Part shown: positions 15,470-56,856 of the stretch, one piece after another
Numbering within the stretch: the stretch's first letter is position 1
Layout: the number at the start of each line of letters is the position of its first letter
From: Rhynchobatus australiae
Taxonomy: Eukaryota
NCBI GenBank assembly: GCA_034780895.1
Contig: JAUZTB010000066.1
Coordinates: 22,666,242-22,730,212, forward strand
DNA length: 63,971 bases
Direction: 5' to 3'
Program-made: the position numbers and the translations under genes
Notes under the pieces: generated by a model
Told to the model about the DNA's origin: nothing
The model's input: only the letters and a program-made list of their open reading frames with translations
Databases searched by the model: none

Positions 15470-16800
15470 TGAATATACTCAGTGACTGAATTTCCACAGC
15501 TGTCCTCTGGAAAGATATGCAAAGATTCACTACCCGCTAGATGAGAAAATTTCTTCTTGTGTCAGTTCTGAATGGACAATGCTTTCTTTTGAGAATTTGA
15601 ACCCGCAGATGTAGATCTTGGAATTGGATCTGTCCCAATGCAGGTTTTCAACTCAAAACATTGACAATTCCTTTCCACCCACAGATGCTGCTCGACCCAC
15701 TGACTTCATCCAACAGATTGTTCGTAACATTAGTTCTGTATCTGCCCTCTCAAACACCTGAAGAATTTTGTTCATTTCAATTAGATCACTTTTCATTCTT
15801 CTAAACTCAAGAGAATACAGATTGTCTGCTTAATTTCTCTTGATATGACAATCTCCCCATCCTAGGAATCAATCTGCTGAACCATTACTACATTACTTCT
15901 GTCAGAAGTACATCCTTATTTTGAAAGAAAAAACTGACTTACACATACTTTTTCAGATACAATCTCAGTGCAATTCCATATAACGAGAGCAAGAAATCTC
16001 AACACTGAGATTCAAATCCTCTTGCAATAAAGGCAATGTACCATTTGCCTTCCCCTATAGCTCGCAGTACCAACACATTAACATACAGTGATTTGTGTAC
16101 AAGGGCATGCAAGTCCTTATATACTTGCAATCTCTCGTCATTGGAAAAAAATTCAGCCCTCCATTTTTTCTGCATTGTGTTCCACCTGTCATGCCGTTGT
16201 CCATTCACTTTGCCTGTCTGTATCCCCCTCACAACCTACAACACCACTTAATCTTGTATTGTCAGCAAACTGGCATCTATTACTATTATCTCCTCATCCA
16301 AATCATTGATATAAATTGTAGACAGAAGGGGCCCCTGCATTAAATCCTGCTTCCCACGCCCTAAAAATGACCCATNNNNNNNNNNNNNNNNNNNNNNNNN
16401 NNNNNNNNNNNNNNNNNNNNNNNNNNNNNNNNNNNNNNNNNNNNNNNNNNNNNNNNNNNNNNNNNNNNNNNNNNNTGCTTCCCACGCCCTAAAAATGACC
16501 CATCAATTCTTCCTCTGTTTTTTGTCTATTAACCAATCCTCAACCTATGCAGGTATATTACCCCCAATGCCATGAGGTTTAATTTTGTTTAATAACTTCT
16601 TATGAGGTAACTTATCAAAGGCTTTCTAAAAGTTAAAAACCATCACATCAGCTTTTGAGTTTATACAACCTCAAACAGATTTGCCTTAAAATGATTACCC
16701 TTTCATAAATACATGTTGACTTTGTCCAATCTTGTAGTTATTTTCCAAGTGTCCTGCTTTGATTTCCTTAATAACAGCATTTTCCCCAATGCTGTTTAAC
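15470..16800 (-). mobile_element. CR1-type LINE, degenerate RT region
   Basis: Minus-strand peptides (IAFIARGFE; LHALVHKSL) and overall similarity to 11099-13309. Interrupted by a PLE-derived piece at ~15630-15725 and a 100-N gap. Confidence 0.75.
15630..15725 (+). mobile_element. Penelope pseudo-LTR fragment with decayed hammerhead
   Basis: tgtc-ccaatgc-aggttttcaactc-aaaa-catt-gaca keeps stem I (tgtc/gaca) with a mutated core, followed by the family tail cacagatgctgctcgacccactga. Confidence 0.65.
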
Positions 16801-17044
16801 ATGTTGCTGTCATAACTTACACCTACTGAACCTTAACATGATGCAGGTTGCTGCTTAACAATGCTGTCAAATTGTTCCTCTGTTGTGAATCCTTGAGATA
16901 TGCTTCAATGTGAGATGCCTTGTCCACATCCGAGCCTTTATACCTATGCACGTCTTTCGTAGAAATGCACACTATCCCTCTGAGTAAATGTTGGTTTAGA
17001 CCTGACATGCACAAAAGCACAATGTGGTGGCAGCTGAAACTGGT

Positions 17045-17205
17045 CAGATAATGCTAGAAATATCCAATGGGCCAGGCAGTATCTGTAGAGAGGGACAATT
17101 AACTCAGTCTGTCAGTGCACAGATGCTGCCAGATTTACTGAGTGCTTCTTGAATTGTCTGACTTTACTCTGCTGGTGATGGTCTTTTACTAGAAATCTTA
17201 ACCCT
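17045..17205. mobile_element. Inverted Penelope pseudo-LTR relic with decayed hammerhead
   Basis: ggcagtatctgtagagag and cacagatgctgccag form inverted arms. A hammerhead-like ctggtga-tggtcttttacta-gaaa lies at 17172-17195. Confidence 0.55.
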
Positions 17206-17214
17206 GCTAATTCA

Positions 17215-17790
17215 TTAACAACTTATATTTATACTTTAAGGCATCAAACATCTCAAGGAGCATTATCAAAGAAAATACTGACCCTTATGAACTTTTCAGG
17301 CAGAACTTGATCAAAGAGTAAATTTTAAACAAGTGCCTCGATGAAGAGTTGAGAGGCTTAGAGAGGAAATTGCACAAGTTAGGGCTTTGGCAGCTGAAGG
17401 CATGTCACCATGTGATGATCAAATTCAGGGCACAAGCAAGAGTCTGGAATTGGAGGAGTTCGGATTTCTCAGAGAATTACAAGGATGGAAGAGATAGAGA
17501 CACACAGACAGACAGAGACAGAAATGGACCTGACTCTGGATGGATTTGAAAGCTTGGTGAGAATTTTGAAATCAAGCAATGCTTAACTAGGATCCAGAGT
17601 AGGGCAGTGAGCATGGGGGTGATGGGTGAACAGGAAAGTGAGAGACAGAAAGAACACAGGCAGCAGGGGTTTGAAGGATTTCGAGTTTACAAAGGGTAGA
17701 ACCAGGGAAGCCAGGAAGGAGAACATCAAAACCGTCAAGTCCAGATGCAGCAAATGTTTGGAAAGATGGGAACAACAGATGTACTGTGGC
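17215..17790 (-). mobile_element. L2-like LINE 3' end
   Basis: The minus strand near 17360-17404 reads HAFSCQSPNLCNFL, resembling the L2 C-terminal RAFSxxGPxLWNSLP motif. Similar to 26040-26660. Confidence 0.7.
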
Positions 17791-19619
17791 AGAGATCGAC
17801 GTAGCAAGCAATCTAATATACATATAGAAAAGCAGTCATTTCCTGTTGTTTCTTTCCATCATTGGAGAAGCAATTGATTTATAAACATCCGCCAATCTAG
17901 AGAGGAACTTCTATCTTCTACTTGACCTCAGGGTATATGTAAACAGAATTAGCTTCTAATTGACCTCTTTGTAACAATTAAACCTGGTGACCTTAAGAAC
18001 TATCAACATGCATTTATATAGTGCCTTTACCATTGGAGAAATGACCCAAGGCATTTGACCTACAGAGGAGAACAAGGTCAGTCTTTTAAATAAGATGGTG
18101 ATGAAGTTGTGGAGCAAATTAATAAAAGGGGAAGTGGAGCTGTATACCTTAGGCTTTATTGATGGATTGTATGAATTACTTCTAAGAGCAGGGCACTGAG
18201 ATGTAAATTTTTGAATAATGGGTATCTGGAATATTTATGATACTTTGATAAATACAGTTCAACATTGCTATTAGTTTCTAATTCATTGTTGACTACCAAG
18301 GTGAGGCAGCAGTAAAAGGAAATGGCTTTGAAAACTCACATGGCTAATAATCAGTTATAAAAACTGTTGTAGCAAGTAATATCTTTACACATACAACCAT
18401 TAAGCTCAGGTAACATTTTATAACCAGATTTTCTAACCTTATCTAAAGGGTTAAATGCTGCATCCTTACAATATGCCATCAGCTAGTTATGCTCTGTTGT
18501 GTTGCATAATCCAGCTATGGAAAGTACCTCAGCATGTTAACGTTCATCACAGAATTGTTTTGGATCATCACGTTGTGGATAGATGGTTTCAAAACTGCTT
18601 CTTAAATTAATGTTCAAGGAAGTCAATAAAACTTGAGAAATTACTTTATTGANNNNNNNNNNNNNNNNNNNNNNNNNNNNNNCCTTCTAAAAACACTGAT
18701 TAACAAATGTTAGTGTAATTAATTTTTAAAGAAGGCTGTATTTTGCTTGTTAAATCCTTGTTAATTTGATCAATGTGGAACACCTGAATATTGAGCCATG
18801 TCCTTTTCCTACCAACCAAAGCTGATATTTTACATTCACCATTTTAGATATGAGAGGAGATAAGGTTCTGACCTAAGTGATCAGGAAATTTCAGTGGTTT
18901 GATCAAACATCCTAAAGTCTTGATAGTTACGAAAGCAATAGTTATAGAAACACTGAGACTCACGCAGAGCACTGCTGGCATTGACTAGTTGGGCCAGATG
19001 GCCTGTTTTCATGCTGCAGCCAGTGTAATCAATGGTGCAACGAATTAATTAATGCAGAAGTTGAGTTCCATCTTCCTGTTATAACGTTGTCATGTTTCAC
19101 CTATCTCCGTGTGTATCTGGAGCTCTTGAACAAACAAATGGCAATTTTGTGAACTGCATCATTCCGTGATAAATGACTCAAAACTCAAAGGAATTTATGC
19201 CTTTGTATTACATGTCAATCATGAAATCATCAAGCTTGTTTGTGGCTTTATGAAGAATGTGTATAGGATTCATTCATGAAATAGTTCACAATTATCAAAG
19301 TATTTCAAAACTGCGAATGAAATGATATTAAAGTGTTGAAATACAGGGAAGTTTCTCTTGCTGTACCTTTCCAACACACTGCTCTTGTTGAGGAAAAGTA
19401 TGACCATTTTGCTAAACCACCGACATCCAATGTTTATTATGATAAAGGCCAGTTAAAAACAGCTTGTAAATCAACTTTAGATGAGCAATTACTAAGTAAG
19501 AGCCAAGCAAGAAATGATACCTGTCTGTGATCCTGATGATGGAAAAGATAAATCATCTGAAAGATTTTAGAATATGATTGTACCTTGTGTCCTATATTAA
19601 TCCAGCATTTCTTAAAAAG

Positions 19620-19770
19620 GATTATCTGTTCACTACCACATTACAGTTTGTGGAAGCTTGCTGTCCATCTATTGACCACCACATTTTGTGAATTATGACA
19701 GTGAATACATTCAAACTTATTTTGTTGTCCAAAAAGTGCTTTGGGATTTTGTAAAAGGGATATAAGTGAC
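19620..19770 (+). mobile_element. Deu-domain SINE 3' fragment
   Basis: gattatctgttcact..gtttgtggaagcttgctgt..acagtgaatacattcaaa..aaagtgctttggga matches the 3' part of the Deu-SINE copies. Confidence 0.6.
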
Positions 19771-20455: not shown

Positions 20456-21090
20456 CCATTTTGGGTTCAGGAATGGTGTCATTTCCAGAGCAGTTCTACT
20501 TAAATAGGAGCTGCCTCATGCATTTCTCTACACACTTGTACTGTACTGTAAACACTACAGTCAGTGTAATAATGGTATGACTTTGTGACTTGAACAGGAT
20601 ATTTGCATCTTTCATGTGTATAACTTTATTTTGGCAAACTGAGTAAACACTCAGTGAGATAGTACTGTATGCAAGCTTTATTTCATGGTAAGATAAGTGT
20701 NNNNNNNNNNACTTAATTCAATCACCACAATTTATCTTTGCTGTAATAAAGAAATGAAGAAATTATTCTGTTTCCCTGCATCAATGGGTTGTCTTAGTTG
20801 ATTTAAGCAAGATGACTGTTAAATTCTTGGCATTTTTTGGCCTTGGCTATCCAGTTCCTTCACAGTAGCAACTGGTGACTGCCCTTGAACGAAGGCTAAT
20901 GCATCTAACCTTTGTGTTAGTGTTAGGCATTTTTTAACAGTGTAAGAAATTGACTGTCATTTGCAGCCTTATGGGCAAAGACTTGTGAACACTAAATCAT
21001 TGCCATCTTAACACTCTATCAGCTCACAGCTTTTGTTCACACTTTTGATTAAATGTACTGAACTTTTAAAAAATCCAGCATTAAGAGTAA

Positions 21091-21307
21091 AACCATAAAT
21101 TCTGTGCATTCTCAGTGGGTCAGTCAGCATCTATGGAGAGAGAAGCAGAGTTAATGTTTCAAGTCAGTGATCATCAGAATTAATGTTTCTGGTCATTAGT
21201 TCAGGAATTAATTCAGTTCCTTCCTCCACAGATGCTACTTAACCTGCTGAGTAACCCCAATATTTTCTTTTACTTCAGATTTCCAGCATCTGAAGTAGTT
21301 GCTTGAA
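21091..21307. mobile_element. Inverted Penelope pseudo-LTR mini-element
   Basis: Inverted arms at ~21111-21155 and ~21206-21251. Minus-strand CTGATGA..GAAA core at 21153-21177. Flanked by cattaagagtaa and cattacgagtaa. Confidence 0.7.
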
Positions 21308-21549
21308 CATTACGAGTAATTCTTTTTTGAATAATGGTCAAATAAATCCTGAAATCTAACTGCTGTTTATATTGTTTAAGTTGTTCCTTATTAATGCAGT
21401 TGGAAGGTAATGAGACTTCGCAGCTGGTTAGAGCAGTAGATCCGTGGTTGTCAGTTCATCGAGATTTATACTTCATTTATTTTTTAAGTGTGTTATTAGG
21501 AATACAATATATTATTTTTTGCTTCACCTAATCAAACCATCACCCACAG

Positions 21550-21785: not shown

Positions 21786-21789
21786 ATTC

Positions 21790-29997: not shown

Positions 29998-30453
29998 GCG
30001 TAGGAGGGGTTTGACAAACCTGGGTTGTTTTCTCTGGATCAGCGGAGGCTGAGGGGAGATCTGATACAAGTTCATAAGATTATGAGAGTCATAGATGGAG
30101 TAGACAGCCCATATCTTTTTTTCCAGGATCCAAATATCTGATACTGGAGGGCATGCATTTAAGGTGAGAGGGGGCAAGTTCAAAGGAGATGTGCGGGCAA
30201 GTTTTATTTTATACAGAGAGTGGTGGGTGCCTGGAATCTGCTGCCAGGGATGGTGAGGAGACAAATACGATATGAGCGGCATTTAAGAGGCTGTGAGATA
30301 GGCACCTGAATGTCCAGAGAATGGAGGAATATGGATGTTGTGTTGGTATAAGGGATTAGTTTAGTTAGGCATTTACCTACTAGTTTAATTAGTTCAGCAC
30401 AACATTGTGGGCCGAAGGGCTTGTTCCTGTGCCGTACCGTTTTACGTTCTATG
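29998..30453 (+). mobile_element. CR1-type LINE 3' end
   Basis: cggaggctgaggggagatctgata (RRLRGDLI), gagggcatgcatttaaggtgagaggg, cagagagtggtgggtgcctggaatctgctgcca, and the tail gggccgaagggcttgttcctgtgc..gttctatg. Confidence 0.9.
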
Positions 30454-32463: not shown

Positions 32464-32841
32464 TTAATGATATACTAGCTGAAGCAGTATCAAGGAGAAA
32501 ATTTCCATGATGTTGGCACCATCAAGACAGATGGAGACCAATCAGTGAAGATTAAGGTTTAAATGGCATTCCATCATGGATGAAGAATGGCTAGCAGAGA
32601 AAGCATGATCTTCTGGAAAAGGGAACTGCCCAGTGGGATTTAACCCTGAGAGGGACACATGATCCTGAACAGGAGCAGGTGATGGCGAGGGAGAGCTGGT
32701 GCATACTTGAGGGAAATAGGATGTTCTATTGGTCCTTTGCCATTCTGCTTCAGTTTACTTTTAAGCTCATGGGTAACTCCCTTGTCTCATGCTGTTTCCA
32801 ACTCAGATCTTTAACTAATAATGGACCCAGGATTAAAAAAG

Positions 32842-33330
32842 CAAAACGGAGACAAGAGACTGTGGATGATGGACTCCAGTTCTTCCTACACCCACCCCAG
32901 CCCCCATCACCCTGTTTCTTTCTCCTCCTCAACCCACTCCATCTACCCATCATCCACACCCTCCTCCCACTAGGTCCCCTCGCCCATTGTTCCCACCTGC
33001 CCTCACATCTCCCTCACTTGGCCCCATGCTCCACCTTCCTCTTATCAGATTCCATCATCTTCAGCCTTTTGTTGCCTCCACCTATCACTTCTCAGCTTCT
33101 GTCATTATTTCCACTCTCCCCTCCTCCATCTCCCCATCACCCCTCCTCACCTGGATCCACTTATTGCTTGCTGGTTCTTGCTCCATCTCTTCCATCCACC
33201 TTTTTACACTGGCTATCTCCCCGATATCTTTCAGTCCAGATGAAGGGTCTCAACCCAACACATTGACAGTCCATTTCCCTCCATTGATGCTGCCTGACTC
33301 AGAGTTCCTCCAGCATCTGTGTGTTGCTCA
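32842..33330 (+). mobile_element. Penelope-like element 3' UTR / pseudo-LTR with decayed hammerhead
   Basis: Pyrimidine-rich tract ending cagtc-cagatga-agggtctcaaccc-aaca-catt-gacag (33232-33269), then gatgctgcctgac..ctccagca. A short inverted start gagacaagagactgtggatg precedes it. Confidence 0.75.
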
Positions 33331-33899
33331 AAGGTATAGCAACCTTTGTAACTATTCTTAAGCCACTGGAATTAATTTCCACAGCATCTTCCCACAGCTT
33401 TCAAAAGTTTGAAAACAAATTAGATCACATTTTAGATTTAAAATATTATGCCAGTTTGGTAAATGAGATATAAACAAATACTCTTGTACAGTTCTGTATT
33501 TACAAATAAAGGATTAGCTGCAGAGGCAAAATACAACATTAAAATCATTCTCTCAGTACCACAATTACAAGAGGACAGTCAGAGAAGATGTGAAGATCAT
33601 CAGACAAACATAGTTCTGAAAATGATAATAAGCACAAGATGGTAAATATTCTGAATGATAACTTGCTTTAGTAACCCACAGGAAAAGATATAAACAGCAT
33701 CCAGTACCTCAAAAAAAAGTACCAAGGCATAATTTAGGACTAATGCAAATAAGATGGAAGTCCTAGACAAATTGAAATGGCTTAAAATAAATAAATATGG
33801 TTTATACTTATCCCACTGTTGAGAAAGGCTGATGAGGAGATTTGAGGCGCTGCCAATCATTGTGAAGTAATCAATAGACAGGAGGGGCAGAGACATGGA

Positions 33900-34844: not shown

Positions 34845-35260
34845 ATTGACATCCCATCCACCAATGTAAATATTCATTCTCTACAGCACCATTTCCCTGT
34901 GGCTATGGCGTGTACCATCTAAAAAATACACTGCAGTTATTTGCTTCAACTATTCTGACAGCATCTCCCAAACCCTTGATCTCAACCATAAAGAGGGACA
35001 AGGGTTTCAGGTGCTTAGAAACAACACCGTGTGCAGGTGTCCCTCCAAGTCACACACCATCCCGATTTGGAAATATATTCTCGTACCTTCATTGTCATTG
35101 CATCTAAATCCCAGAACTTCCTTTCTAACAGCGTTGTGGAAGTATCTACATCAGATGGATTGAAGCAGTTCAAGAAGATGGCTCACCACCTTAGGCAATT
35201 CGGGATAGCCAATAAATTGTGGCCTTGCCAGCAATGTCCACATCCCAAAGAATGTTTGAA
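34845..35260 (+). mobile_element. Non-LTR retrotransposon 3' end (CR1-group family recalled from sharks and rays)
   Basis: ORF fragment QVSLQVTHHPDLEIYSRTFIVIASKSQNFLSNSVV..GLKQFKKMAHH, then the tail ggcaattcgggatagccaataaattgtggccttgccagcaatgtccacatccca. A related tail sits at 60237-60300. Confidence 0.75.
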
Positions 35261-35819
35261 TGAAAAAATAGATATTGCTTCAAGATTGCTTCCCACACTG
35301 CTTATTGGTTCTTATAAGATGGTCAATATTTAGCCCGAGGAGGACAGGTCTCATTTTTTTTGGCCTCTGGCTTAATTTTACCTAAACTAACAAGATACAA
35401 GTGCCTTGAGCAAGAGAGTGAATAAAACAAGTGGAAAGGATTTAAACCCAAGGAAACAAGGATGAAAGAGTAATGATCTGTACCATACATAATGACAATG
35501 TCATGTGAATACAGCAACGAACAATAAAAGATGAATGCTAATGACATAAGAAATGGTGAATAAATTTGAAGTGTTTTATAACAGGGAGTTATTAGATAAA
35601 TTGATACCCAGTTATAGGAAGAAACAAGTAAGCAGCAGATCTTCAGGACCATACATTCTTTGGAAGAAAAGAATAAGCGTGGAGTTGGATAGGCAGGATT
35701 ACATATGAGAGGAGCTTTATACATTGCCGCAAGGAATGAACAAGGAATTTGCACAGTCCATCTGCAGAAATGATAGAGTCCTGAAGATATTTAGGAACTT
35801 GCTTGAAGAGTTAGAGCTA

Positions 35820-36183: not shown

Positions 36184-36220
36184 AGTTCTGATGACAGGTC
36201 ATTGACCTGAAATGTCAACT
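36184..36220 (+). ncRNA. Minimal type I hammerhead ribozyme motif within a Penelope pseudo-LTR fragment (fragment extends to ~36285)
   Basis: AGTT (stem I) CTGATGA C AGGTC-ATT-GACCT (stem II) GAAA T GTC AACT (stem I'). All core nucleotides are present and the predicted cut is after C36216. Confidence 0.75.
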
Positions 36221-36772
36221 CTCGTTCTCTCTCTGAAGATGCTGTCTGATCTGCTGAATATTTCAAGTATTTTGTATTTTCACTTTTTAGTTTTAAAGAT
36301 TTTTTAACATTTTGTCAGAGAAATGAGTTGAGAACCAAGAAGGAGAAAGAAATCCTGATGCATACCAGGTTTTCTCCCTGTTCTCCCAAATAGGGAGAAA
36401 ATAAAATCAGGTAGCAGAAAATAATAAAATGGATGAGGGATGTGAAGGGAAATGTGGTGGAAGGTACAAAGAGAAATAACAGAGAATATCATGACAAAGG
36501 GAAGAGTACAGAAGGATGTTTGTTCATTATCCGCTGTCTGTTGGTAGTGATGTCTGAGGTGGCAGAATTTCTAAATCAATAAACTCTACATGGTGTTGTT
36601 CACAGTGAATCAGACAACATAGCCACTCACTTACTTGTCCCCAATGTCTTTATGTTACTGACTGTCGAGTGAACTTCTTCTGCTTGACTTTCTCACCAGC
36701 TGCTTCATTTTTCTTCCGTCTGCCTTTTCACTTTGGGTGGGAAGTGAGCAGACAAAGGCTGTGTAATGCATT

Positions 36773-38059: not shown

Positions 38060-38345
38060 CACTTCCAACCGTCGTGCAAGGCAGTAGGGAGACTTCACTT
38101 GTGTACAGTTTTGGTCTCCTCATTTCAGAAGGGGTACACTTGCAATGGAGGCAGGTCAGAAAAGGTTCAAGAGGTTAATTCCTGGGGTGAAGAGCAATCT
38201 TTTGAGGAACAACTGAACACATTGGAGTTTAGAAGATAGAGGGGGAATCTTATTGAAACATATATAAGATTTTGAGGGTGTTCAACAAGATAAACAGTGC
38301 CTCTCTTTATGGTGGGATCTTCAAAAGGGGGACATAGTTCTAAAA
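38060..38345 (+). mobile_element. CR1 RT C-terminal fragment
   Basis: gtacagttttggtctcctcatttcagaag (VQFWSPHFR), gttcaagaggttaattcctggg and agaagatagagggggaatcttattgaaacatat. Confidence 0.75.
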
Positions 38346-38411
38346 AGATCTACAAGATTTATTCAGCATGCAATTCAACATTCTACTGCTGACTTAAATA
38401 TTCACAATGAA

Positions 38412-38790
38412 ACTCTGGAGCAAAGAAGACTGAGGGGTGACTTGATAGAAGTGTATATCTTTATGAGAAGCACAGGTAAGGTAGTCAAACTATTTTTACC
38501 GTGGCAGGGGCATTGAAAACAAGAGGGCATAGGTTTAAGGTGAAAAGAAGCAGTTTTAAAGGGAATTTTGTGGTAGGATTTTTATGCAGAGAGTGGTTGA
38601 TATCTGGAACCCACTGCCAGAGGAGGTGGTGAAATCCAATACAATCAGTGTGCTTCAGTGGCTTTTAGGCAGACATTGACAAGGCATAAAAGACAGTACT
38701 AATGTGGGTAAATGGGATTAGTATAGTTGGGCAAAAAGGATGGCATGGACCTGGTGGGCTGAAGGGCTTGTTTCTGTTCTGTACAACTCT
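38412..38790 (+). mobile_element. CR1-type LINE 3' end
   Basis: ctggagcaaagaagactgaggggtgacttgatagaagtgtat (LEQRRLRGDLIEVY), aacaagagggcataggtttaaggtg and the tail gggctgaagggcttgtttctgttctgtac. Confidence 0.85.
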
Positions 38791-41700: not shown

Positions 41701-42277
41701 AAATTGACAAAGATGCTGCCATCTTTTCTGTTGTCAATTTCCGTTATGGATCCCAATGTCTGCAGTTCTCATCACTTACACAACTTAAATATTTCTTGCA
41801 CTAAATGAGAAACAAATTATTTCCATCTTAGCTTTATATAAATGATGTGTAAGGTCCTGTTTTCTTATTTGATCTCTCTATACTGAGTGTTATATTTAAT
41901 ATGAAACTGTCAAAATTCCAAGTTTATTTTCACTCTAACATGCAATAATTGATGACTGTTCACCCATTCATTCCAATGTAGATAGTTGGAGATAAATAGA
42001 GAGAGTTAGAACACCAACTGTAAATTTATCTAGAAAGTCTGGATAGAAAGTCTCGTTTTTATGTTGTGGAGGAGGGGTGGGAGAGCAAGGATTTGTTGGT
42101 GACAGGGTGGTTGTTGGTGGGATTTATTAGGATGCTTCAATTCAGGATTCAGCTTGCCCTTTGGCACTATTGATGTGCACTATAGGGAAGTAGAAGAAAG
42201 TATTTCGATGCAACTTGTATTGCAACTTCAAGGCACCTCAAACCACTTCATTGTCAATTAGTTCCCTTTGAAGTGAA

Positions 42278-42334
42278 AATAGAAAAGGCTAGAAATACTT
42301 AACAAAGCAGGCAAAAATCTATGGAGAGAAGAAT
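42278..42334 (-). mobile_element. Terminal pseudo-LTR piece of the Penelope element interrupted by CR1
   Basis: gctagaaatacttaacaaagcaggcaaaaatctatggagagaagaatagag resembles the left arms at 21100-21150 and 49960-50005. Confidence 0.6.
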
Positions 42335-44896
42335 AGAGTCATAGAGTACAACAGCACAGAAACAGGCCCTTTGGTCCATCTAGTCCATGCCGACCTATCT
42401 TCGGCCTAGCCTCATTTACCTGCACTTAGACTATACCCCTCCAAACCCCTCCCATCCATGTACTGTACCTATCCAAACTTCTCTAAAATGTTACAATATG
42501 GTAGATAAGCATATGGAGGAACTTAAAATAGAGGGATATGTGGGAGGAAGGGGTTAGATAGTCTTAGACGAGGCTTAAAGGTCAGCACAACATTTTGGGC
42601 CGAAGGGCCTGTATTGTGCTGTACTGTTCTATGGTTCTATGAACCTGCATCTACTACTTCCATTCCACACTCACACTGCCCTCTGAATGAAGAAGTTTCC
42701 CCTCAGATTCCCCTTATATATTTCACCTTTCCCTCCAAACCTGTGTCCTCTAGTTCTAGTCTCATCCAACCTCGGGAAAAAGCCTGCAGACATTCAGCCC
42801 ATCTATACCCTTCATAATTTTGTATACCTCTATAAGATCTTGCCTCATTCTTCTGCATTCCAGGGAATAAAGTTCTAACCTATTCAGCCTTTCCCGATAA
42901 CTCAGGTCCTCAAGTCCTGGTAACATCCTTGTCAATTTTCTCTGCACTCTTTCAAGTTTAATGATATCTTTCCTGTAGGTAGGGGACCAGAACTGCACAC
43001 AATACTTTAAATTCGGCCTCACCAATGTATTCTACAACTTCAATGTAACATCCCAACTCCTGTAATCAGTGCCCTGATTNNNNNNNNNNNNNNNNNNNNN
43101 NNNNNNNNNNNNNNNNNNNNNNNNNNNNNNNNNNNNNNNNNNNNNNNNNNNNACCTGTATTCCCAGGTCCCTCTGTTTTACCGTGCACACCTCAGAGGCC
43201 TACCATTTACTGTGCAAGTCCTACCCTGGTTTGTCCTCCCAAAGTGCAACACTCATACTTGTCTGCATTAAATTCCATCAGCCATTTTTCAGCCCATTTT
43301 CCCAGCTGATCCAGATCACTCTGCAAGCTTTGATAGCCTTCCTTGCTGTCCCCCACGCCCCCAATCTTGGTGTCATCTGCAAATTTGCTGATCCAGTTTA
43401 CCAGATTATCATCTAAATTATTTATATAGATGACAAACAACAACAGACCCAACACCAATCCCAGCAGCACATCACGAGTTACAGACCTTCTGTGAGAGAG
43501 AAATCCACCTACTACCACTCCCTGGCTTCTCCCGCTAAGCCAAAGTTGAATCCAATTGGCTACTTCATCCTGAATGCCAAGCGACTTAACCTTCTGAACC
43601 AGCTTCACATGCCGGACTTCGTCAAAGACTTTGCAAAAATCCATGTAGACAACGTCCACCGCCTTTCCCTCACCGACTCTATAAGATTGGTTAGACATGA
43701 CCTACCATACACAAAGCCATGTTGACTATCCCTAATCAGGCCCTGTCTAGCCAAATACTTTTATATGTTGTCCCTTAGAATGCCTTCCAATAATTTACCC
43801 ACAACTGACGTCAGGCTCACCAGCCTATAATTTCCCATCTTATTCTCAGAGCCTTTCTTGAACAACGCAACAACATTAGCTATCCTCCAGTTCTCCAGCA
43901 CCTCACCTAAGGCTAAGGATATTTTAAATGTCCCTGCCAGGGCCCTTGCAATTTCTGCACTAGCCTCCCACAAGGTCCGAGGGAACACCTTATCAGGCCC
44001 TGGGGATTTATCCACTTTAATTCGCCTCAAGACAGCTAGCACCTCCTCTTCCGTAATCCGGATACAATCCATGACTTCACAACACTTTTGCCTCAGTTCT
44101 ATAGTCTCTGTCGCCAGAGTAAATACAGATGCAAAAAATTCACTTATGATCTCTCTCATCTCTCTCAGCTCCATGCATAGATGACCATACTGATCTTCAA
44201 GAGGACCAATTTTGTCCCTTGCTCTTAATATAGCTGTAGAAACCCTTGGGATTCTTTTTCACCCTGTCTGCCAGAGCAACCTCATATCCTCTTTTTGCCC
44301 TCCTGATTTCTCTCTTAAATGTTCTCTTGTATTTCTTATACTCCTCAAGTGCTTCATTTGATCCTAACTGCCTATACCTTGTATCTGCCACCTTTTTCTT
44401 TACCAGGGCCTCAATATCCCTTGATAACCCAAGATTCCTTAAACCTGCTAGCCATGCCTTTTATTCTAAGAACATACAGATTCTGTACACTCAATATTTC
44501 ACCTTTGTAGGCCTCCCTCTCACCAAGCATCTCTTTGCCAGAAAACAGCATATCCCAATCCACATCTGCCAGATCCCTTCTGATGCCATCAAAAGTGGCC
44601 TTACTCCAATTTAGAATATCAACCTGAGGATCAGTCCTATTCTTCTCCATAATTATCCTTAATGGAATTAATGGAATATTAATGGAATTATTATCATCAG
44701 ATCCAAAGTGTTCCCTGACACACACTTCTGTCATCTACCCTGTCTTGTTCCCTAAGAGGAGATCTAGTATCATGCTCTCTCTAGTTGGGACCTTTACATA
44801 TTGATTAAGGAAACTTTCCTGAACACATTTGACAAACTCTATCCCATGGAATCCCTTTACAGTATGGGAATCCTGGTCATTATGTGGAAAGTTAAA
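42335..44896 (-). mobile_element. CR1/HER1-type LINE, 5'-truncated ORF2 pseudogene (endonuclease + reverse transcriptase) and 3' UTR
   Basis: ORF-track peptides include KSPGPDKVFPRTL..NYRLVSLTSVVGKLLE, VDVVYMDF..LFVIYINNLD..KFADDTKIG and VRPNLKYCVQFWSP..LERVQR. Near 44780-44896 the strand reads FNFP..FLNQYVKVPTRE..ILDLLLGN. Frameshifts and an internal deletion near 43690. Confidence 0.95.
42498..42640 (+). mobile_element. CR1 3'-tail fragment inserted antisense into the larger CR1
   Basis: ggtcagcacaacattttgggccgaagggcctgtattgtgctgtactgttctatggttctatg is like the tail at 30395-30453. The host sequence resumes at gaacctgcatc. Confidence 0.85.
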
Positions 44897-45378
44897 AGGG
44901 TGAAAGTGCAACAAAGTAATAAAAGCCGAGGCAAGGGGTAAGTCCAGAGCTAAAATACCAAAAGAATTTGGAAGGAATGCTGGAAAGCTGGAATAAAAAA
45001 GCTGGAATGTTGAATATAGTGGGGTCTAGGTTACTGGAATGTGCCCAGTCGGTGACTGTCCTTTGAGCTGACGTTAAGCTTTGTCGGAATAATATCAGAG
45101 GCCAAAGACAGGACGCTGCAATCTGGTGTGGGCTGGAGGATTACATTGACGAGCGAGTGGAAGTTCGGGGTCACATTTGTAGAATGAACAGAGAAGTTGC
45201 ACAAATTAATAACCCTGTTGGCATTTGGTCTCCCAATGTACGCCAGGCTGTACTGTGATCTGAACGTTAGCTCTGCCAGACTTGTCATGAAGACTGTCTG
45301 ACTTACAGATTTATTACAGCAATTTTGATTTTACTTTTTCAATGTTTTATAGATTTCTAGCATCTGCGATATTTTGAG
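44897..45378 (-). mobile_element. Penelope-like element remnant with GIY-YIG endonuclease pseudogene
   Basis: The minus strand reads RSQYSLAYIG, then after a 1-nt frameshift ETKCQQGY*FVQLLCSFYKCDPELPLARQCNPPAH..VFGL*..RLGTFQ. This matches the PLE pattern YIGETxRxLxxRFxEH..PVAxHFN..RLGTLQP. An inverted pseudo-LTR tail (gatttctagcatctgc) lies at ~45290-45378. Confidence 0.8.
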
Positions 45379-49260: not shown

Positions 49261-49948
49261 TTAGTTTGTAAATACAACCAGCACCATCACTTTTATATTC
49301 CTTTACCTTGTTATTATTTCTGCAGGACTTCTTCACTCATGAACACAATTGTGCATCTTTACAGTGTATCTTTGTATCTTTACAGTGCTCCTGGCTTGTG
49401 CATTCCCTTATTACCCCATGCATGCAAATATATATTTTTTTGCATTTCTGATATGAAACGAAAGGTAGGGCCAGTCTTCCCCTCCAGGTACTATTTGGGT
49501 GCTGAACAAAGATAGTGTGCTCGAGGAAGCAGTTCACGATTTCTGTAACTTGACCTGGGAGGCCTTCGACTGTGAAGGGGCAAATGGTCCTGAGGCTGAA
49601 TGATTAGGCTGAGTCATGGAAGGAATGATGTAGAAAATGTACCAAAAGGCTAAGGAAATCCGTGGGATGTTCCTAGATCCTTCCAAGATCTTTCCTCAAT
49701 TCCTCTGAGGACCCAATGGATAAAGTCAGAAACAGAGAGGCAGTCGGGAATGTTTCCTCCAGCTCATTTACAGCCCTTGTGTGAAATTGGTTGCAATCAG
49801 AAGTCTTGGGGTAAAATATCTGGGGCAGAAACATGATACTATGGTTTCTCTGCTCATTTCTTCTGCTGGCCTAAGAAATGCTTAATGTACAGAAACAATG
49901 AAGAGAAAATGAAACACTTTTAATCAATGTTGGATGTTCCTCATTGTT

Positions 49949-50106
49949 AGCAACACACACAAAATGCTAGAGGAACTCAGCAGGTCAGCAGCATCTATGG
50001 AGGGAAATAAACTGTCGATGTTTCGGTTTGAGACCTTTCATCAGGGCTCCAGCATTTTGTGTGTGTTGCTCCAGACTCCAGCATCTTCAGAATTTCTTGT
50101 GTCTCC
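49949..50106. mobile_element. Inverted Penelope pseudo-LTR mini-element with hammerhead core
   Basis: 24-bp inverted repeats (49949-49972 and 50047-50070, 23/24 match) enclose minus-strand CTGATGA-aaggtctcaaacc-GAAA-CATC (50017-50044). Confidence 0.8.
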
Positions 50107-50334
50107 ATTCTACTTTGTTACATTTGTTTGTTACATTTGTTTGAATGGTCTCATCCTCTTCAGTCCATTGTGCATTGTAAGATATGAAGTTAAAGATGTG
50201 TCAGCAATACCTGTGAAGATAAGTTTGTATTCTGTTTACCTCTTGTAATCGGCTTATCATAGTCAATCCGCTGGGCAGTTGGAAGTGTACATCAGCTGGA
50301 TGCTGTGTGCTGAAGAACTTGTATCATTCCATGG

Positions 50335-51750
50335 GTTAAAAAACTTTCAATAAGATTGTAGCTGATCTGATACTGACCTCAACATCATTTTTCCACCTTC
50401 TCCCCATTTCCCTTGACTCTCTTGTACTTTAAATGTCAATTTTTGCCTTGAATATATTCAATGATTCCACTCCGCAGATCTCTGGGGTACGGATTTCCAA
50501 AAATTCACTCCTTATCTCTATCTTAAATTCAGACCCCTTATTCTGAAACCATGTCCTCCATTCAAGGTACCCCCACTGGACAAAACATCCTCTTAGCATT
50601 CACCCTGCAAATCTTAGTGTTTCTAGTTGATTTCTTCTCAATTGCAATGACTATAGGCCCAACTGTGCAAACTTTACTCAAGTTTCAACCCCTTCATCCC
50701 AGTCATCAACCTAGTGAACATTCTCTGCAGAGCCTCCTTCTGAAATACCAAAACTGTATACCGTCCTCCAACTGTGTCGAAGCTTCTTTACATTTATACT
50801 CCATATTCCTTGTAATGAAGGCCGACATGCCACTTGTATTTTTCGTTACTTGCTGTGCCTGCATGCAAACTTTTTATGTTTTATGTGCTAGGACTTCCTG
50901 ATCCCTTGGTACCTCAGCATTTTGTGGTCTCGCTCTGTTTAAATAATCAATTTGAAGTTATACAACCTATTATTTGAATTAAGACACTAACTAAAGTTAT
51001 AGCATCAGGTTAGTTTTAAGCGTCTCCTTTGTCACATAATTCATGGTAATATATTCATTTGTGCTTTTTCATTCTTTCTTCTAAGTGGATGACCTCAAAT
51101 CTTTCCCACATACTCCACCAACCAATGTTTTCCCACCTATTTAACCTATCTCTATTTCTTTGCAAGGTCTTTGGGTTCTCCTTGCAACTTGCTGAGCCAC
51201 CTATCAGCAAATTTGTATGATCAGCAAATTTGGAAACAGTTCACTCAGTTCTTTCATGCCATCATTAATACAGATTATAAACAGTTGAGGCCTCAGCATT
51301 GATCCCTGTGGCACTGCACCAATTACTGACTGCCAATTCAATTATTTATCTCAACGCTACATTAGCAACTCCCCAAACAAAGCCAAATTACTATCCCCAA
51401 CTTGTGTATTCTTGTGCAGTAGCCTAATTGAATGCCTTCTGGAAAGCCAAATACACTACATCTACCAGGTCCTCTCTTTTCACTCTGTATGTTATATCCT
51501 CAAAGAACTCTCGCATCTTTGTGAAACATGATTTTCTTTTCATAAAACTATGTTGTCTCTGCACTTTCTAAGTGTCCTGCTATTACCTCCTTAATAATTG
51601 GTTTGAGGATTCTCTGAATGACAGATATTAGGCTAACTGGCCTGTAGATTTCTGGTTTCTATCTTCATCCTTCTATGGACAGTGGTGTTACAGTTGTGGT
51701 TTTCCAATCCTCTGGAAATTCTCAGAAATCCAAGGAATTTTGATAAATCA
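50335..51750 (-). mobile_element. CR1-type LINE, degenerate
   Basis: Collinear with 11160-12560: gccttgaatatattca, gacccttattctgaaac, gagg..cagcattgatccct, gaatgccttctggaaagccaaatacactacat. Confidence 0.8.
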
Positions 51751-53486
51751 GCACCACCTTATGAAATAAAACTGGCCATGCCTCACTAGAGCCAAAACCT
51801 CCTGTAACCATTATTAAACTGAAAGTGGAAATATTCAATCTTATCCTCCTTGGTGTAGAAGGATGATTTTAACAATTCCTACTCCTTAATGGATGCATGC
51901 AGTATATTTCAAACTTTTTAGTTGAGGAAATGAGGGCTAACTTAGTTGGTCAGGGCCATGATACCAGGAAGCAAATATTGACTAGAATTCCTTCTCGTAA
52001 TAGCTGTTTAATAGTTACTGTTGGAAAGATACACATTTGGTAAGAATGCGATCATGATTAAGGTGGTGCTGTCCAAGACTGGATTGCCCATTGACATCAA
52101 CCATTTGGTCACTTGAGAACTCTTCTTATCTATTACATTTAAGAATCTCTTGAATAACCACATTCAGCACGATAAGGGAAAAATTAGAGCAGGGTGGTAN
52201 NNNNNGTGATTTTCCCTTAAGACATTAATGATACTAAAGTGATTAGGAAGAATATCCTTCAGCCCTGAAAGAAAATGTTCAGTGAAGAAGAGGTTTATGC
52301 AACATGCCAGATAAGGCATCAGTACTGCTTTTTACTAGTGACAGCAAGAGGGAAACATGAATTATCAAGGTCACGTCCCATCTTTGGAAACGATAAGGTA
52401 TTTTGTCAGCGGTAATTAGTTTCCAATTATGGTCAAAATATTATATTATAACCACTTTGTTGTCTGGTGACAGCCTTTGATCATGTTGCTTCAAAATCTG
52501 GCAGTATTTATGGCTCCATGTGATGTATGCTTCCTGTCAGACTTGAAATAACAGTAAATGCTGCTGAACAGGCCCCACCTGCTGAGCTGAATGCTCCAAA
52601 TCCCTCTGGCAGGTCAGCCCATTCCTCTGCAGAGACAGTTTCCGCCTGTCGTGGAGGTAGTTTACAGAAGCTACAAAACAGGAATATGTTTTTGAAGAGG
52701 CTTACAAAATCTAAATGACGCTGACAATATTCTTCCTAAGTTTGCAAAGCACTCAAATCTCCAAAGCCTTGGGTGTCTTTTTTTTCATGTGACACATATA
52801 AGCTGATATAAACCTGTCAGAAAACCTGTTGCCAAAGCTTCCCTTGAACATAATCCAATCTTATTCTTGCAATGTTCTGAGTATGCTTGGTGACATGTTA
52901 AGCCTTTGAGTATTACATTCCCTCTGGAGCTTTAGATTTCCACTACCATCATAAAAAATGGTTGGAGAAACTGACAACATAATGTTTAATCACTTGTAGC
53001 AGAGTATTCTCCTGATTAAATTGATTTCTAACAAAAACATGAATAAAGGCACCATGAAAGTCAAGTGAGAAATGTTTGCGCTTCAAATTTTGCATCAGAT
53101 CTTTTCTTCCTCAGCTTTTCCATTAATGTTTTAATGCAAGCAGCTGTAAAATTTACCATTCATACAAAGCATGTTGCATTTTTTAATGAGGTTATGCTGC
53201 ACTGATAAGTCACTTCATACTAAACTACTTGCAGAACAGTGACATTTTGAAGAAAATTTTCCTGGTGACTGCATTAATTAGTTTTAATGATTCTTGCTTG
53301 AAAATCTTGACAAGGATTATTTCCTTGTGGGTTGAATTTCTGGTGTTCCAAATACAAAGCCTGCACTATGCAAGATACTCAATAACTGTAAATCTACCTG
53401 GGAGCTCTTAGTTGTGCTATTTAGGGGAGGTTCTATAGTTTGACTTTCTGCAGGAAGATTGCGCTCTAAAAGCTTTTAAAAATGGC

Positions 53487-53558
53487 ATTATTATGAAGAT
53501 TGCAGTGGAATTATAGTGCAGGACTGGGCCACAATTCTGCTGCAATCTTCATAATAAT
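53487..53558 (+). repeat. Inverted repeat: 26-bp stem, 20-nt loop
   Basis: attattatgaagattgcagtggaatt (53487-53512) pairs with aattctgctgcaatcttcataataat (53533-53558): 24 Watson-Crick pairs plus 2 G-U pairs on the + strand. Confidence 0.9.
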
Positions 53559-53829
53559 TTCAGCTGCTTGATTTTAGCAAAGTATTTGCAACTCATAGTG
53601 TTAGTATCAGTAATGTTTTCTTTTGGGAAATCCAAGCCATTTTAACTCATAAACTTCACAGGAAGTGGATGAGGTGCTCCCTCTTGTATGATTAAAAATG
53701 CCAGTGTAACAAGGTAGATTTCTCTCGGACACAGCGCAAATTCAGATGAATGGAATTATGTGCGCCTTCAGGTTAATGAATGAAATCAACCAATGTTATA
53801 GTTGGATTTGACTTCAGATGAGGAATTGC

Positions 53830-54010
53830 TAACAACTTGTGTTCGTGTAGTGCCTTTAACTGACCACTGTACCTATTGGTGTTCTACAGGGGTCCAATCC
53901 AGCAGAATTTCATACCAAGTCAGATGAGCAATTAGGACAAATGTTAAAAGGAGCTTCACCAAAGATGAAACAGAAGTGGAGAGCTAGAGATTTGGGAAGG
54001 GAATTATAAA
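53830..54010 (-). mobile_element. L2-like 3' end, degenerate
   Basis: aacaacttgtgttcgtgtagtgcctttaac tail and gagatttgggaagggaatt. Confidence 0.5.
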
Positions 54011-56696
54011 GTTCTGCATCTCGACAGAATAACAGAACCTGAAGTAACATGGGATCTGTGGTTTCGGCAGAGATTGTATCTTGTCTAAAATGACAACAAC
54101 TGAATCAAAATAGTGACACATACTCAGAATAAGTTATAGGATTCGGAATGACTGACTTATCCAGAATATCACAGTTATGGAACCCAGGATATAGCTGTAC
54201 AGCTGTTACAAATGCAACATTAATATAACCAATGTGTATGATTGTAAATTTGTTAAGTGAGAATATTGGATGCTTCCAACACTAAGCTGTCAGAACATCT
54301 AGAGGAGACAAATAATGACAGAAGTTAGCTTGTAACGCTAACGACACCACTGCTACTGAAAAACTGCTGCTGCTCCAGCCAGTGTCCTCTCTTACGTTTA
54401 CATGACTACACTGTGTTCAGCAGAAGCAGGATCCACCTCCTCCCTTCATCCACCCACCACTGGTATTTCAAAGATCATTAGTTGCTTGGAGATTTGTTGC
54501 TGTTTTATTTCTGTTGCATATTGCCATGATTCTGCAAGTGTTTGATGCCTTTTGGATTTCTTTGCAGTTGTTAAAGTTGACATGCTGTGGTGAATCAGGC
54601 ACAAAAACACTTTGTCTTAAATCCAGTCTTCTGATTAACCAGTTTTCCCAAGACACAAGTGTATCGATAGGTATTCCCCTTGGAGTGCAACATGACCAAT
54701 AGATTGAGTGGAGAGCATAGAACAAGACAACTTGTTGGAAGAAGAAGGGAAGTAAGGCTCAAAACAGGTTGCTGCCTCTGTACGGGGTCTTTTGGAGAGC
54801 AATTCTCATGCCTGAACCTCAGTAAAGAGTTAATTCAGTAATGATATCCTCACTAAAATTTGTCAAAAGCTCCAGCCACAACTATAACTTCATCCCAGGT
54901 GAGCCCACTTTGCTGATCACTGTGGCCATGAGCTAAGTTTCAGACTCATTCAAGGCTGGATATTCACAACATCTTGCAGGATGCCATTTCTTGTTACATA
55001 ATGAAGATCAGTTGGGCACTCTACACCTTCAAAAACAATCCTAGTTTGTCTCATTTCTCCTCATTTAACCCTTGGAGCTCACAGATTATTATACTGCCCC
55101 CAAGGCCAGAGGTTTAGGCTCCATAATTTTCCTTGAGTGAGTTTCTGGTCCTTATGAACAACATTTAGATGTTTTGCTGCATTATTTTAGTAATTCAAAT
55201 TATTGTTGCTGTAAATGCATTATATTTTAATTTTTACTGTGCAGATCCTTTTTGTTTCATATGATCCATATGAATGAAATACAATACCTTGACCAAACTC
55301 TTATTCTCAGTCACGNNNNNNNNNNNNNNNNNNNNNNNNNNNNNNNTTTGATGTGCAGCCGCTGGTGTCTCTGATCCAAATCTTGCCGAGAGTACCATGC
55401 CAATTCTGTCTGACTTGAACTGGGAACCCAGACACAACTGATTGTTGATGTTACAAGCTTGCAGCTTAGAGACTTTCTCTGGAGAATCTCTAAATCAGGG
55501 CTGCTGCTCAGGATCAGGATGTCAGTGGGAGCCATGTTGATCGGACTACGTTCTGTGCATTTCTTCCAACTCCACTGTTGAGTGTTCCTGAACAAGCAAC
55601 TTTGTCAATAATGTAAATTATGGCCCTTTACTGTTTTGAACTGGGTATCAAATTTCAATGATTATTTTTATCATCTCTTAATGAATCTTTACATTAATGG
55701 CTTTCAAGCAGATCTTTCTGTTGGTACATCGATGAATTGATCTTGCATCCTACCTGACATTTCCTTTCATTACCTGCCTGGTTTCTCCTTTCTCCTTTCT
55801 TATTGCATTTTACAGTTTGATGATTGGACACTTGTGCAGAAGTTCCAAACAAAGTCATTAATATTGGCTGGTAAATATCAACATTTTCTCCCACACAAAC
55901 CAGAAACTCTGAGACTTGAGTGTTTTAGCTTCAATTGTGGAAGTCCTGAACTTGCTGATGGATTCAAGCCAGCAATGTTAGCAGTACAATCCACTGACAG
56001 ACTCCACACAGTAAGATTAGGATCTGCAAGAATAGTCTTTTCAATGGGGAACTTACAGCTGTGAAGTAGGATAGTAAGAGTAAAGGAAGTTACTATTTTA
56101 TTAATTGTTTGTGTTTGCACTGATTGTATTGATTATTTTACATGATTTCATGTCAAATATCACTTAATCATTTTTTTTCAACATCATGTTTCATTTCTAT
56201 TGGTCTTAGGATGCTTCTGAATATCATGGATGCTCATAATCATTTTAAGCACTTGACAGATTTGACAAATGGCAGAAATGAGAGCATGGTGTTCCCTCTG
56301 GTGAAGGTTTCCTCAGTAGTTTTGTGAATGGGTCTTGTTTTGGCCAATAACTTTGTGCAAGACCCTTGCACCACTCAGGATTTCATTACTTGGTCCAAGG
56401 CAATCATGGCCAACAAATACAGCCTCACAATCCAAACCAAGTAAGTGTAGGTCAAGGGGAATCAGAGAAGCAAGTACTGGGAGGAGCAACAATCAGCAAG
56501 TCCGGGCCATTAATCAACAACAGGAAAATTAAATCACTTCTGTATTTACAGTTGCAAAGTCACCATTTTGTTATTTGGTAAAGTTTTGTTTTTTCACTTT
56601 AGTAATTTATATATTAAATGTTGCATATTAGTTAATATATGTAGTATCTTAATAACCTGAATCTCCACGCGTTTCAATAGATCCTCTTCCATATGT

Positions 56697-56856
56697 AAAA
56701 CAGTACAGATGTTGGAAATCTGAATGAAACACTCAGCAGGTCAAGCGATGTTTCAGGTCAATGAACCTTCATCAGAACCTGAAGCATTAACTCTGTTTCT
56801 CTCTCCACAGATGTTGCCTGACCTACTGAGTGTTTCCAGCATTCTCTGTTTCATTA
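56697..56856. mobile_element. Inverted Penelope pseudo-LTR mini-element with hammerhead core
   Basis: Arms aaacactcagcaggtca and tgacctactgagtgttt. Minus-strand gtt-CTGATGA-AGGT-tcattg-ACCT-GAAA-CATC at 56747-56778. Confidence 0.75.

Follow-up and report, generated by a model that had tools for sequence, protein, structure and literature searches.

The question raised by this stretch of Rhynchobatus australiae DNA (63,971 nucleotides, hereafter the window) is whether it holds a dense family of hammerhead-bearing, non-autonomous derivatives of Penelope-like elements (PLE), part of a very large population of retrozyme-like ribozymes, as a first-pass annotation had proposed. Our analysis indicates that each locus is very probably an old insertion of the end of a single abundant repeat family, which is divided into two subfamilies. 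These ends are likely 5′-truncated pseudo-LTRs of Penelope-like retrotransposons, and the dispersed copies would be decaying passengers.

Hammerhead motifs and their state of preservation

All seven places at which motifs had been annotated hold sequence alignable to one repeat family. The hammerhead character of the motif is supported, and a minimal hammerhead descriptor returned precisely 21179, 36184, 50044 and 56778, the same four copies that had been claimed to keep CTGATGA and GAAA exactly and that indeed do so. Against these four matches, 200 shuffles yielded 0.36 on average and never more than 2. In an Rfam scan, no hammerhead family matched with E of 5 or below. When intact cores are counted over the seven copies, exact catalytic boxes are kept in four but only one motif is structurally whole, namely 36184, in which both boxes are combined with stem I of 4 bp, stem II of 5 bp closed by A-U, and the triplet GUC. 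The other six motifs are broken: core mismatches number four in 15631 and three in 33232, the 5′ strand of stem I is gone in 50044, most of stem II is gone in 21179, 56778 has deletions, with the stem I 3′ strand and a portion of its tail lost, and the motif at 17172 is weak by itself (E 0.76), with shuffle P values of 0.0005 against 21179 and 0.012 against 36184. The tail that was said to follow every motif does follow it in the other copies, but at 17172 it lies upstream (17098-17165) and at 56778 it is incomplete.

Helix III is absent from the seven motifs, which carry one additional base between positions 9 and 10.1. Positions 15.1-16.1 read ACAT in five of the seven and ATGT in one, and judged from these letters the two forms may represent the two CpG-decay products of an ancestral palindrome. 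A Watson-Crick palindrome at 15.2-16.2, through which PLE minimal hammerheads would dimerize for self-cleavage when not assisted by protein, is found in none of the seven, and single CpG-decay products in six.

The division into a GTC type and an AGTT type is real, since the three GTC-type copies are 71-83% identical to one another, whereas in the same alignment their identity to the two AGTT-type copies with ribozyme and tail is 51-61%. The two arms of one locus belong to the same subfamily. The further claim that the subfamilies display compensatory change preserving the fold could not be upheld. Only two pair swaps, 1.1-2.1 and 10.1-11.1, both G-C to A-U, separate them; two pair swaps are two events and no covariation signal. 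The 10.1-11.1 pair is itself G-C in two of the three GTC-type copies and A-U in 36184, which is of the AGTT type. No long AGTT-type copy was seen in the window.

Insertion architecture and abundance of the family

Five of the seven loci display the layout published for PLEs, in which a 5′-truncated copy and a second truncated copy in inverted orientation adjoin and the tail may be extended (Table 1). Truncation at the 5′ side is strong, start points being variable and the 3′ tail common to copies. A long tail extension is found on one arm (21207, 50047, 56778, 32878) and a short one on the partner arm, as in the optional extension of 30-40 bp at one end only that characterizes PLE insertions. 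Four loci fold as long hairpins (z -2.9 to -6.6 versus base shuffles), and three of the eight ribozyme-less arms start at the predicted cut site. All five short hammerhead-plus-tail copies start within ~4 nt of stem I, and homology to the long copy is absent upstream of them. Target site duplications (TSD) were significant at none of the seven loci, the longest flank matches being 4-6 nt (P 0.10-0.83) with approximate boundaries, and no partial-tandem pseudo-LTR before a full ORF was found in the window. EN+ PLEs have an intron in the 5′ UTR and an internal promoter in the pseudo-LTR; here, putative acceptor-like sites are seen in the sequence where the tail starts and at 33232-33234.

Table 1. 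Positions of the repeat family members and their parts in the window.
Feature	Positions	Strand	Remarks
Longest locus, GTC type	32846..33330	+	inverted piece, family sequence, hammerhead, short tail
Inverted long-tail piece of longest locus	32846-32878	-	shuffle P 0.008
Pyrimidine-rich family sequence of longest locus, ~355 nt	32876-33231		
GTC-type minimal hammerhead of longest locus	33232-33269	+	decayed core; short tail to ~33325
5′ edge of stem I	33232..33235	+	ends of other copies pile up; pyrimidine tract then CAG
AGTT-type hammerhead and short tail	36184..36283	+	no second, inverted arm seen; an N gap lies 46 nt upstream
Inverted composite, GTC type	49947..50111	-	two arms
Its minus arm	50047-49947	-	hammerhead without 5′ stem I strand, short tail
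Its plus arm	50047-50111	+	tail end and long extension
Inverted composite, AGTT type	56692..56859	-	two arms
Its minus arm	56778-56694	-	5′ part of hammerhead, deleted long tail
Its plus arm	56776-56859	+	starts within stem II; short tail
Inverted composite, AGTT type	21089..21303	-	two arms
Its minus arm	21180-21089	-	hammerhead, stem II deleted, short tail
Its plus arm	21207-21303	+	starts at predicted cut site; long tail
Tail arms and hammerhead	17043..17207	+	two inverted arms, then motif
Its arms	17043-17099, 17098-17165	-, +	joined at palindrome around predicted cut site
Its decayed hammerhead	17172-17207	+	without tail
GTC-type hammerhead, decayed, and tail	15631..15721	+	solo; start = stem I
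Tail-only piece	42269..42341	-	E 8.5e-4, outside seed set; starts at predicted cut site, adjoins LINE-type 3′ end
Tail-only piece	3125..3187	-	E 1.3e-4, outside seed set
Probable tail-only piece, long extension	45294..45374	+	E 0.061

The window thus holds seven strong and three weaker loci in 64 kb, the weaker ones from a profile search for extra tail pieces in which the best control match had E 0.22. The inverted second arms at five loci and the three tail-only pieces are absent from the first-pass annotation. Pieces at 4499, 14078, 36592 and 62429 could not be separated from controls by the profile and were rejected; that at 14078 (blastn E 0.007) is excluded from the counts.

The abundance of the family was assessed by aligning contigs from four runs (X1, X2, X5 and X7), representing four organisms, to the copy at 33232. 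The inference of a very large family was borne out, as between 11,833 and 17,904 contig records per run aligned to this one copy (11,927, 11,833, 17,904 and 17,088). Summed contig depth, which does not equal copy number, never exceeded 12.7 in the flanks and peaked over the tail, and coverage of the longest locus climbed toward the tail. The family goes on 5′ of 32876, where 92 (X5) and 86 (X7) loose ends agree at 0.72-0.75, a continuation seen over 30 letters. This continuation of the GTC type beyond its longest copy is consistent with ends truncated from a longer element, and the proposal of a non-autonomous family is not supported. The insertion at the longest locus is common to two relatives, with contigs across its junctions in organisms B and E. 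Among the rows listed, an A of the GAAA box is restored by the family majority at 33259 (97% of X1 depth), as is a stem I pair at 33268 (93%). A strand-switch joint 33233/33269 is present in all four runs (3, 1, 3 and 4 contigs). Ends at 33232-33235 account for 3, 4, 2 and 3 of the best six loose-end rows in X1, X2, X5 and X7, and the flanks at these ends are unrelated and AT-rich (agreement 0.31-0.34). Loose ends of other copies also lie behind 33315.

Origin of the copies

The PLE origin assumed in the first-pass annotation is supported by architecture but not by linkage to reverse transcriptase (RT) or GIY-YIG sequence, which was found in no search of the window or of homologous ORFs; because no such link was found, PLE membership rests on architecture. 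Pfam gave no GIY-YIG match in 56 of the 73 window ORFs (the 17 containing N being left out) and a single RVT_1 match at 43210-43701, with the nearest hammerhead motif ~6 kb away, and short RT/GIY-YIG motifs in six frames of the window matched at chance level only. Protein searches retrieved only repeat-derived ORFs of other genomes (P0002, P0003 and P0005-P0007), and these five contain no Pfam domains. In P0002, the initial segment ahead of the match to 33232 may resemble a PLE GIY-YIG domain in its decayed C-terminal portion, and this resemblance is left out of the evidence. P0001 and P0004 were rejected as homologues, being low-complexity or chance matches. Long-protein searches for linked RT/GIY-YIG, a weak search type, were empty, and the tail as N-terminus of a PLE ORF found no support in a likewise weak search. 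Motif pattern scans gave no match in metagenome contigs (two scans) or in viral contigs, and two matches in prokaryote genomes are ascribed to chance, with little or no extension past the 22-mer and no hammerhead.

One may ask whether the short hammerhead-plus-tail units, chiefly of the AGTT type, constitute a non-autonomous family with its own 5′ end at stem I, self-transcribed and mobilised in trans by PLE protein. The uniform starts of the short copies, the pile-up of other genomic copies' ends at 33232-33235 and the AGTT type being without a long copy in the window all point that way. However, the GTC type has long members, arms differ widely in start and tail length, neither promoter boxes nor a constant TSD was seen, and early stops on full-length PLE RNA would give identical ends, so that we regard this explanation as quite unlikely. 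An origin of the motifs from non-LTR retrozymes, as monomers or remnants, is very unlikely; in such elements the ribozyme cuts tandem units, which are then circularised and inserted anew. The window has no tandem array of the element, its seven tandem rows with periods of 9-21 all lying elsewhere, and the retrozyme reading of the first-pass annotation therefore fails; the repeats are inverted instead of head to tail, canonical helix III is absent, most motifs are broken and that at 17172 is heavily decayed, and units measure ~90-130 nt against 150-450 nt in PMC7229834. The order tail, linker, hammerhead at 17098-17207, with ~100 nt between successive cut-site palindromes, is nevertheless what such an origin might leave, and a preprint (bioRxiv 10.64898/2026.07.22.740005) describes dispersed monomers of PLE-derived retrozymes, one chondrichthyan included. 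The long hairpins of four inverted loci could also recall MITE-like DNA transposons with hammerhead-like sequence by accident in their terminal inverted repeats, an explanation that is hardly credible given that the arms are unequal and variable in length, that two of the seven loci have no second arm, that coverage increases toward one end, and that no locus has a significant TSD.

Under the preferred explanation of truncated PLE ends, the RT/GIY-YIG protein of a PLE would nick AT-rich DNA and reverse transcription would start within the tail, at either of two sites giving the short and the long tail. Often both nicked strands would prime, and two short cDNAs would join head to head into the tail-out inverted composites. 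Most cDNAs would end early. Many would do so where stem I has its 5′ edge, which may be the RNA 5′ end or a point of cDNA fold-back via stem I, and others within the palindrome that spans the cut site. Ribozyme activity would be confined to dimers within the parent element's transcripts, and the dispersed copies would be passengers that decay once inserted.

Relation to known elements and meaning of the family

Single PLE-derived minimal hammerheads are already known genome-wide in massive numbers from the parts of Cervera and De la Pena 2014 (PMC4209133) considered here. The metazoan motifs described there and those of the window are both of type I, without helix III and with a short stem I, have the extra base between 9 and 10.1, occur mostly as single dispersed motifs with some close opposite-strand pairs, and form several consensus families per genome. 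They differ in the closure of stem II, where the former have a conserved G10.1-C11.1 and the AGTT subfamily has A-U. Cartilaginous fishes are not mentioned in the parts of that paper considered or in two of its supplementary files. For EN+ PLEs (Penelope/Poseidon, Neptune), an adjoining inverted truncated copy and an optional tail extension at one end are described in parts of PMC8557442, and these features are shared by the present loci, as is 5′ truncation. A hammerhead shortly upstream of the element end and AT-rich flanks are likewise shared with EN+ PLEs and the anole element PAc, according to sections of PMC8557442 and PMC11167929. Unlike EN+ PLEs, no ORF is seen here and both arms are often just 30-100 nt, and the 5′ end pile-up at stem I was not found described for EN+ PLEs in those sections. 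For PAc, parts of PMC11167929 describe two sites at which RT starts, with nicking and extension of both strands, in agreement with the short and long tails and the arms on two sides seen here. Non-LTR retrozymes (PMC7229834; bioRxiv 10.64898/2026.07.22.740005) are also non-coding, with a type I hammerhead, kinship to PLE pseudo-LTRs and existing dispersed monomers. In them, however, the type I hammerhead is canonical and has a short helix III, units measure 150-450 nt (PMC7229834), and head-to-tail arrays have intact ribozymes in consecutive units and give circular RNA, in contrast to the solo or inverted, decayed loci here.

The find is largely ordinary, a minimal hammerhead in PLE ends being of a kind already described. 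It adds a very abundant family of this lineage to the known association of minimal hammerheads with PLE ends, of which a genome can hold thousands. It is useful for repeat annotation and provides no evidence for a hidden population of active ribozymes. The start points of the pieces may record where the element RNA began or was cut. We suggest, tentatively and as a rather unlikely proposition, that tens of thousands of dead copies start at the 5′ edge of stem I and at the cut site and so form a fossil map of PLE RNA ends. In vitro, no RNA reads ending at the cut site were obtained for anole PAc in the parts of PMC11167929 considered. If the proposition is true, the cut-site spike would be direct genomic evidence of in vivo cleavage by PLE minimal hammerheads and of reverse transcription of the cleaved RNA, and the stem I spike would place either the RNA 5′ end or the stem I fold-back step that produces the inverted composites.

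The repeat family and its hammerhead motifs

All seven sites that the first-pass annotation had assigned to one repeat family align to it. A minimal-hammerhead descriptor gave four matches in the window (21177, 36188, 50044 and 56775), the same four motifs previously singled out for exact boxes, against a mean of 0.36 over 200 shuffles, of which 0/200 reached four. When the motifs were parsed pair by pair for boxes, stems I and II and the triplet, 36184 alone among the seven combined both boxes with a stem I of 4 bp, a stem II of 5 bp and the triplet GUC. The claimed layout of motif followed by tail (the sequence 3' of the hammerhead) breaks down at 17172, where a weak motif has no downstream tail, and Rfam did not find the hammerhead family in the window. 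A profile built from ten arms (truncated copies, such as the oppositely oriented ones at composite loci) added three tail-only pieces, none in the seed set, giving 7 strong and 3 weaker loci in the 64 kb. A possible tail fragment of 30 nt at 14078-14107 (-) matches the tail of 33232 at 86% (blastn E 0.007), but its profile match is weak (E 0.93).

The two subfamilies, named by stem I, are borne out by identity, the three GTC-type copies being 71-83% alike, against 51-61% when they are compared with 36184 and 21179, the AGTT-type copies. The compensatory change thought to preserve the fold is consistent with a conserved fold but amounts to two events, at the core-adjacent pairs 1.1-2.1 and 10.1-11.1, each G-C to A-U. 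At 15.1-16.1 five copies carry ACAT, one ATGT and one ATCT; we infer that ACAT and ATGT are CpG-decay products of a palindrome. Across the window CpG observed/expected stays at 0.16-0.28, and at a resolution of 4 kb no island is visible. Position 17 tends to carry the same base as 2.1 (36184-36220; 33232-33269), so that six bases around the cut site are palindromic in both subfamilies; 36184 breaks this palindrome and carries GUC. Both arms at 17043-17165 have a common tail ending absent from other loci and perhaps represent a third subfamily.

Aligning public contigs from four organisms (4 out of 13 listed runs) to 32700-33480 at 80% likeness gave 11,927, 11,833, 17,904 and 17,088 records in runs X1, X2, X5 and X7. 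The large hammerhead-bearing family derived from Penelope-like elements (PLEs) that had been proposed is thus abundant (11,833-17,904 records per run), but its motifs in the window are mostly decayed. Summed contig depth, which is not copy number, does not exceed 12.7 in the flanks, climbs from ~32862 and is maximal over the tail. In the rows listed (64 more lie beyond them), majority letters repair one A in the GAAA box, at 33259, and one stem I pair, at 33268. Ahead of 32876, loose ends (92 in X5, 86 in X7) show an agreement of 0.72-0.75, indicating that the family has longer members. The left junction of the 32846 locus is crossed by contigs from organisms B and E and the right one by contigs from E, which places the insertion before the B/E split. 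PLE expansion in whale shark introns has been reported (10.1101/443036).

Locus architecture and coding sequence

Of the seven loci, five are more than simple copies. Composite arms are unequal and, within a locus, of the same subfamily; the tail is either short or ~30-40 nt longer, the longer form being on one arm only. Target-site duplications at the seven loci, whose boundaries are approximate, were not significant. Transcripts across four of the composites have predicted long hairpins in competition with the hammerhead fold, which would make ribozyme activity there unlikely. The window's only circularly permuted arrangement is 17098-17207 (tail, linker, decayed hammerhead), with ~100 nt between successive cut-site palindromes.

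Features in the window and loose contig ends at stem I
Feature	Position	Observation
Motif 50044 (-)	50044	Starts at core; 5' strand of stem I absent (pairwise parse)
Motif 56778 (-)	56778	3' strand of stem I gone (pairwise parse)
Motif 21179 (-)	21179	Most of stem II gone (pairwise parse)
Motif 33232 (+)	33232	3 core mismatches (pairwise parse)
Motif 15631 (+)	15631	4 core mismatches (pairwise parse)
Outward-facing arm pairs	17043-17165; 21089-21303; 49947-50111; 56692-56859	Tail ends outermost
Short inverted tail piece	32846	Ahead of long copy; shuffle P 0.008
Further CR1-like pieces	11345-12310; 13420-13900; 30200-30420; 34870-35330; 38100-38770; 50500-51600	
Common short 3'-end repeat family	9094-9147; 13866-13899; 30391-30424; 38738-38771; 42337-42390; 42579-42612	
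Loose ends, among top six rows	before 33232-33235	X1: 164, 115, 83
Loose ends, among top six rows	before 33232-33235	X2: 187, 116, 104, 104
Loose ends, among top six rows	before 33232-33235	X5: 184, 126
Loose ends, among top six rows	before 33232-33235	X7: 229, 147, 121

Pfam searches of 56 of the 73 window ORFs (>=90 residues) recognised no GIY-YIG domain, no host exon and one RVT_1 (43210-43701, E 6.6e-14). Around this match lies a broken LINE-type element (43210-45025, -), which we take to be a CR1-type LINE, the adjoining ORFs resembling CR1 ORF2. A short-motif scan for PLE coding sequence in the window gave chance matches only. A protein search with the frame over 32870-33358 found five repeat-derived ORFs in other assemblies, none with a Pfam domain, and searches for longer proteins linked to the repeat were empty. 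As no RT/GIY-YIG coding link was found, PLE membership rests on architecture. The short 3'-end repeat family is presumably a shark LINE/SINE 3' tail; one copy adjoins the tail-only piece at 42341. A 35-nt inverted repeat with a 2-nt spacer at 53487-53558 (83% complementary) is possibly a decayed palindromic element, and its Rfam microRNA matches are far under gathering score.

5' ends and a proposed origin of the arms

Among the top six loose-end rows per run (2,223 further rows lie beyond them), 3, 4, 2 and 3 in X1, X2, X5 and X7 fall ahead of 33232-33235, where stem I has its 5' edge. These ends are A/T-rich, have median lengths of 202-255 and agree at just 0.31-0.34, unlike ends from local reference divergence (0.48-0.75). 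For those at 33232 the final letters come in part from the family's upstream sequence, so clipping plays some part at that position. Within the window, 5/5 short hammerhead-plus-tail copies begin at the stem I edge, lacking upstream homology to the long copy.

Features recorded for PLE insertions are a truncated 5' end, an inverted truncated copy alongside, a tail of 30-40 bp that may be present at one end, and a pseudo-LTR containing a hammerhead (PMC8557442). At AT-rich sites the protein of the anole PLE nicks both strands and extends them; it begins reverse transcription from two internal positions bounding the tail, and assists the element's hammerhead, whose cleavage is unnecessary for in vitro insertion; none of the RNA reads terminated at the cut site (PMC11167929). 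By analogy, tail priming from both nicked strands would yield two short cDNAs joined head to head, two start sites would yield two tail lengths, and early cDNA stops would leave arms of 30-130 nt. Stops at stem I could correspond to the 5' end of the RNA or to cDNA folding back through stem I. The latter is favoured by strand-switch joints between the two strands of stem I (33233/33269), present in 4/4 runs (3, 1, 3 and 4 contigs).

A spliced PLE template with its acceptor at stem I could also lie behind the 5' ends there. In Drosophila virilis Penelope an intron 3' end falls at helix I's 5' end (PMC4209133), 121 nt past the start site (PMC2377424), and 33232-33234 is acceptor-like, a CAG behind a pyrimidine tract. 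However, such a template would be expected to give the loose ends a common exon 1, which was not seen. Three of eight ribozyme-less arms start within the palindrome across the predicted cut site (binomial P ~0.003, 4-nt slot), a lead only, since the slot was picked post hoc and 2/3 of these arms were seeds; template switching by microhomology in that palindrome offers another explanation for starts at the same place. After the palindrome, both subfamilies carry a pyrimidine tract, then YAG, then ATG, and a short open frame whose length is equal in the two; the layout (33270-33290, 56786-56813, 21207-21234 and equivalents) resembles a branch point and acceptor and could exonise in host introns. 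A protein search with the ORF starting there was empty. The pile-up at stem I is an unexplained feature, and the distribution of 5' ends is a lead worth following.

Placement among hammerhead elements

Retrozymes consist of consecutive head-to-tail units with complete ribozymes (PMC7229834; bioRxiv 10.64898/2026.07.22.740005), an organisation not found in the window. The proposal of retrozyme-like elements is not supported: tandem copies were sought with Tandem Repeats Finder, and its 7 rows in the window (periods 9-21 nt) include none within the element. The survey in bioRxiv 10.64898/2026.07.22.740005 includes one chondrichthyan, with dispersed monomers. A literature search, sparse for subscription papers and without Repbase, listed no paper focused on PLE ends with hammerheads in cartilaginous fishes or on an accumulation of 5' ends at stem I. 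Further papers covered were PMC6155905, PMC6765202 and PMC9004415. Minimal hammerheads of the same kind occur in PLE repeats by the thousands per genome, mostly single and some in close opposite-strand pairs, and show no activity as monomers and weak activity as dimers (PMC4209133). The repeat described here is real, very abundant and old, and most likely represents truncated PLE ends bearing decayed minimal hammerheads.
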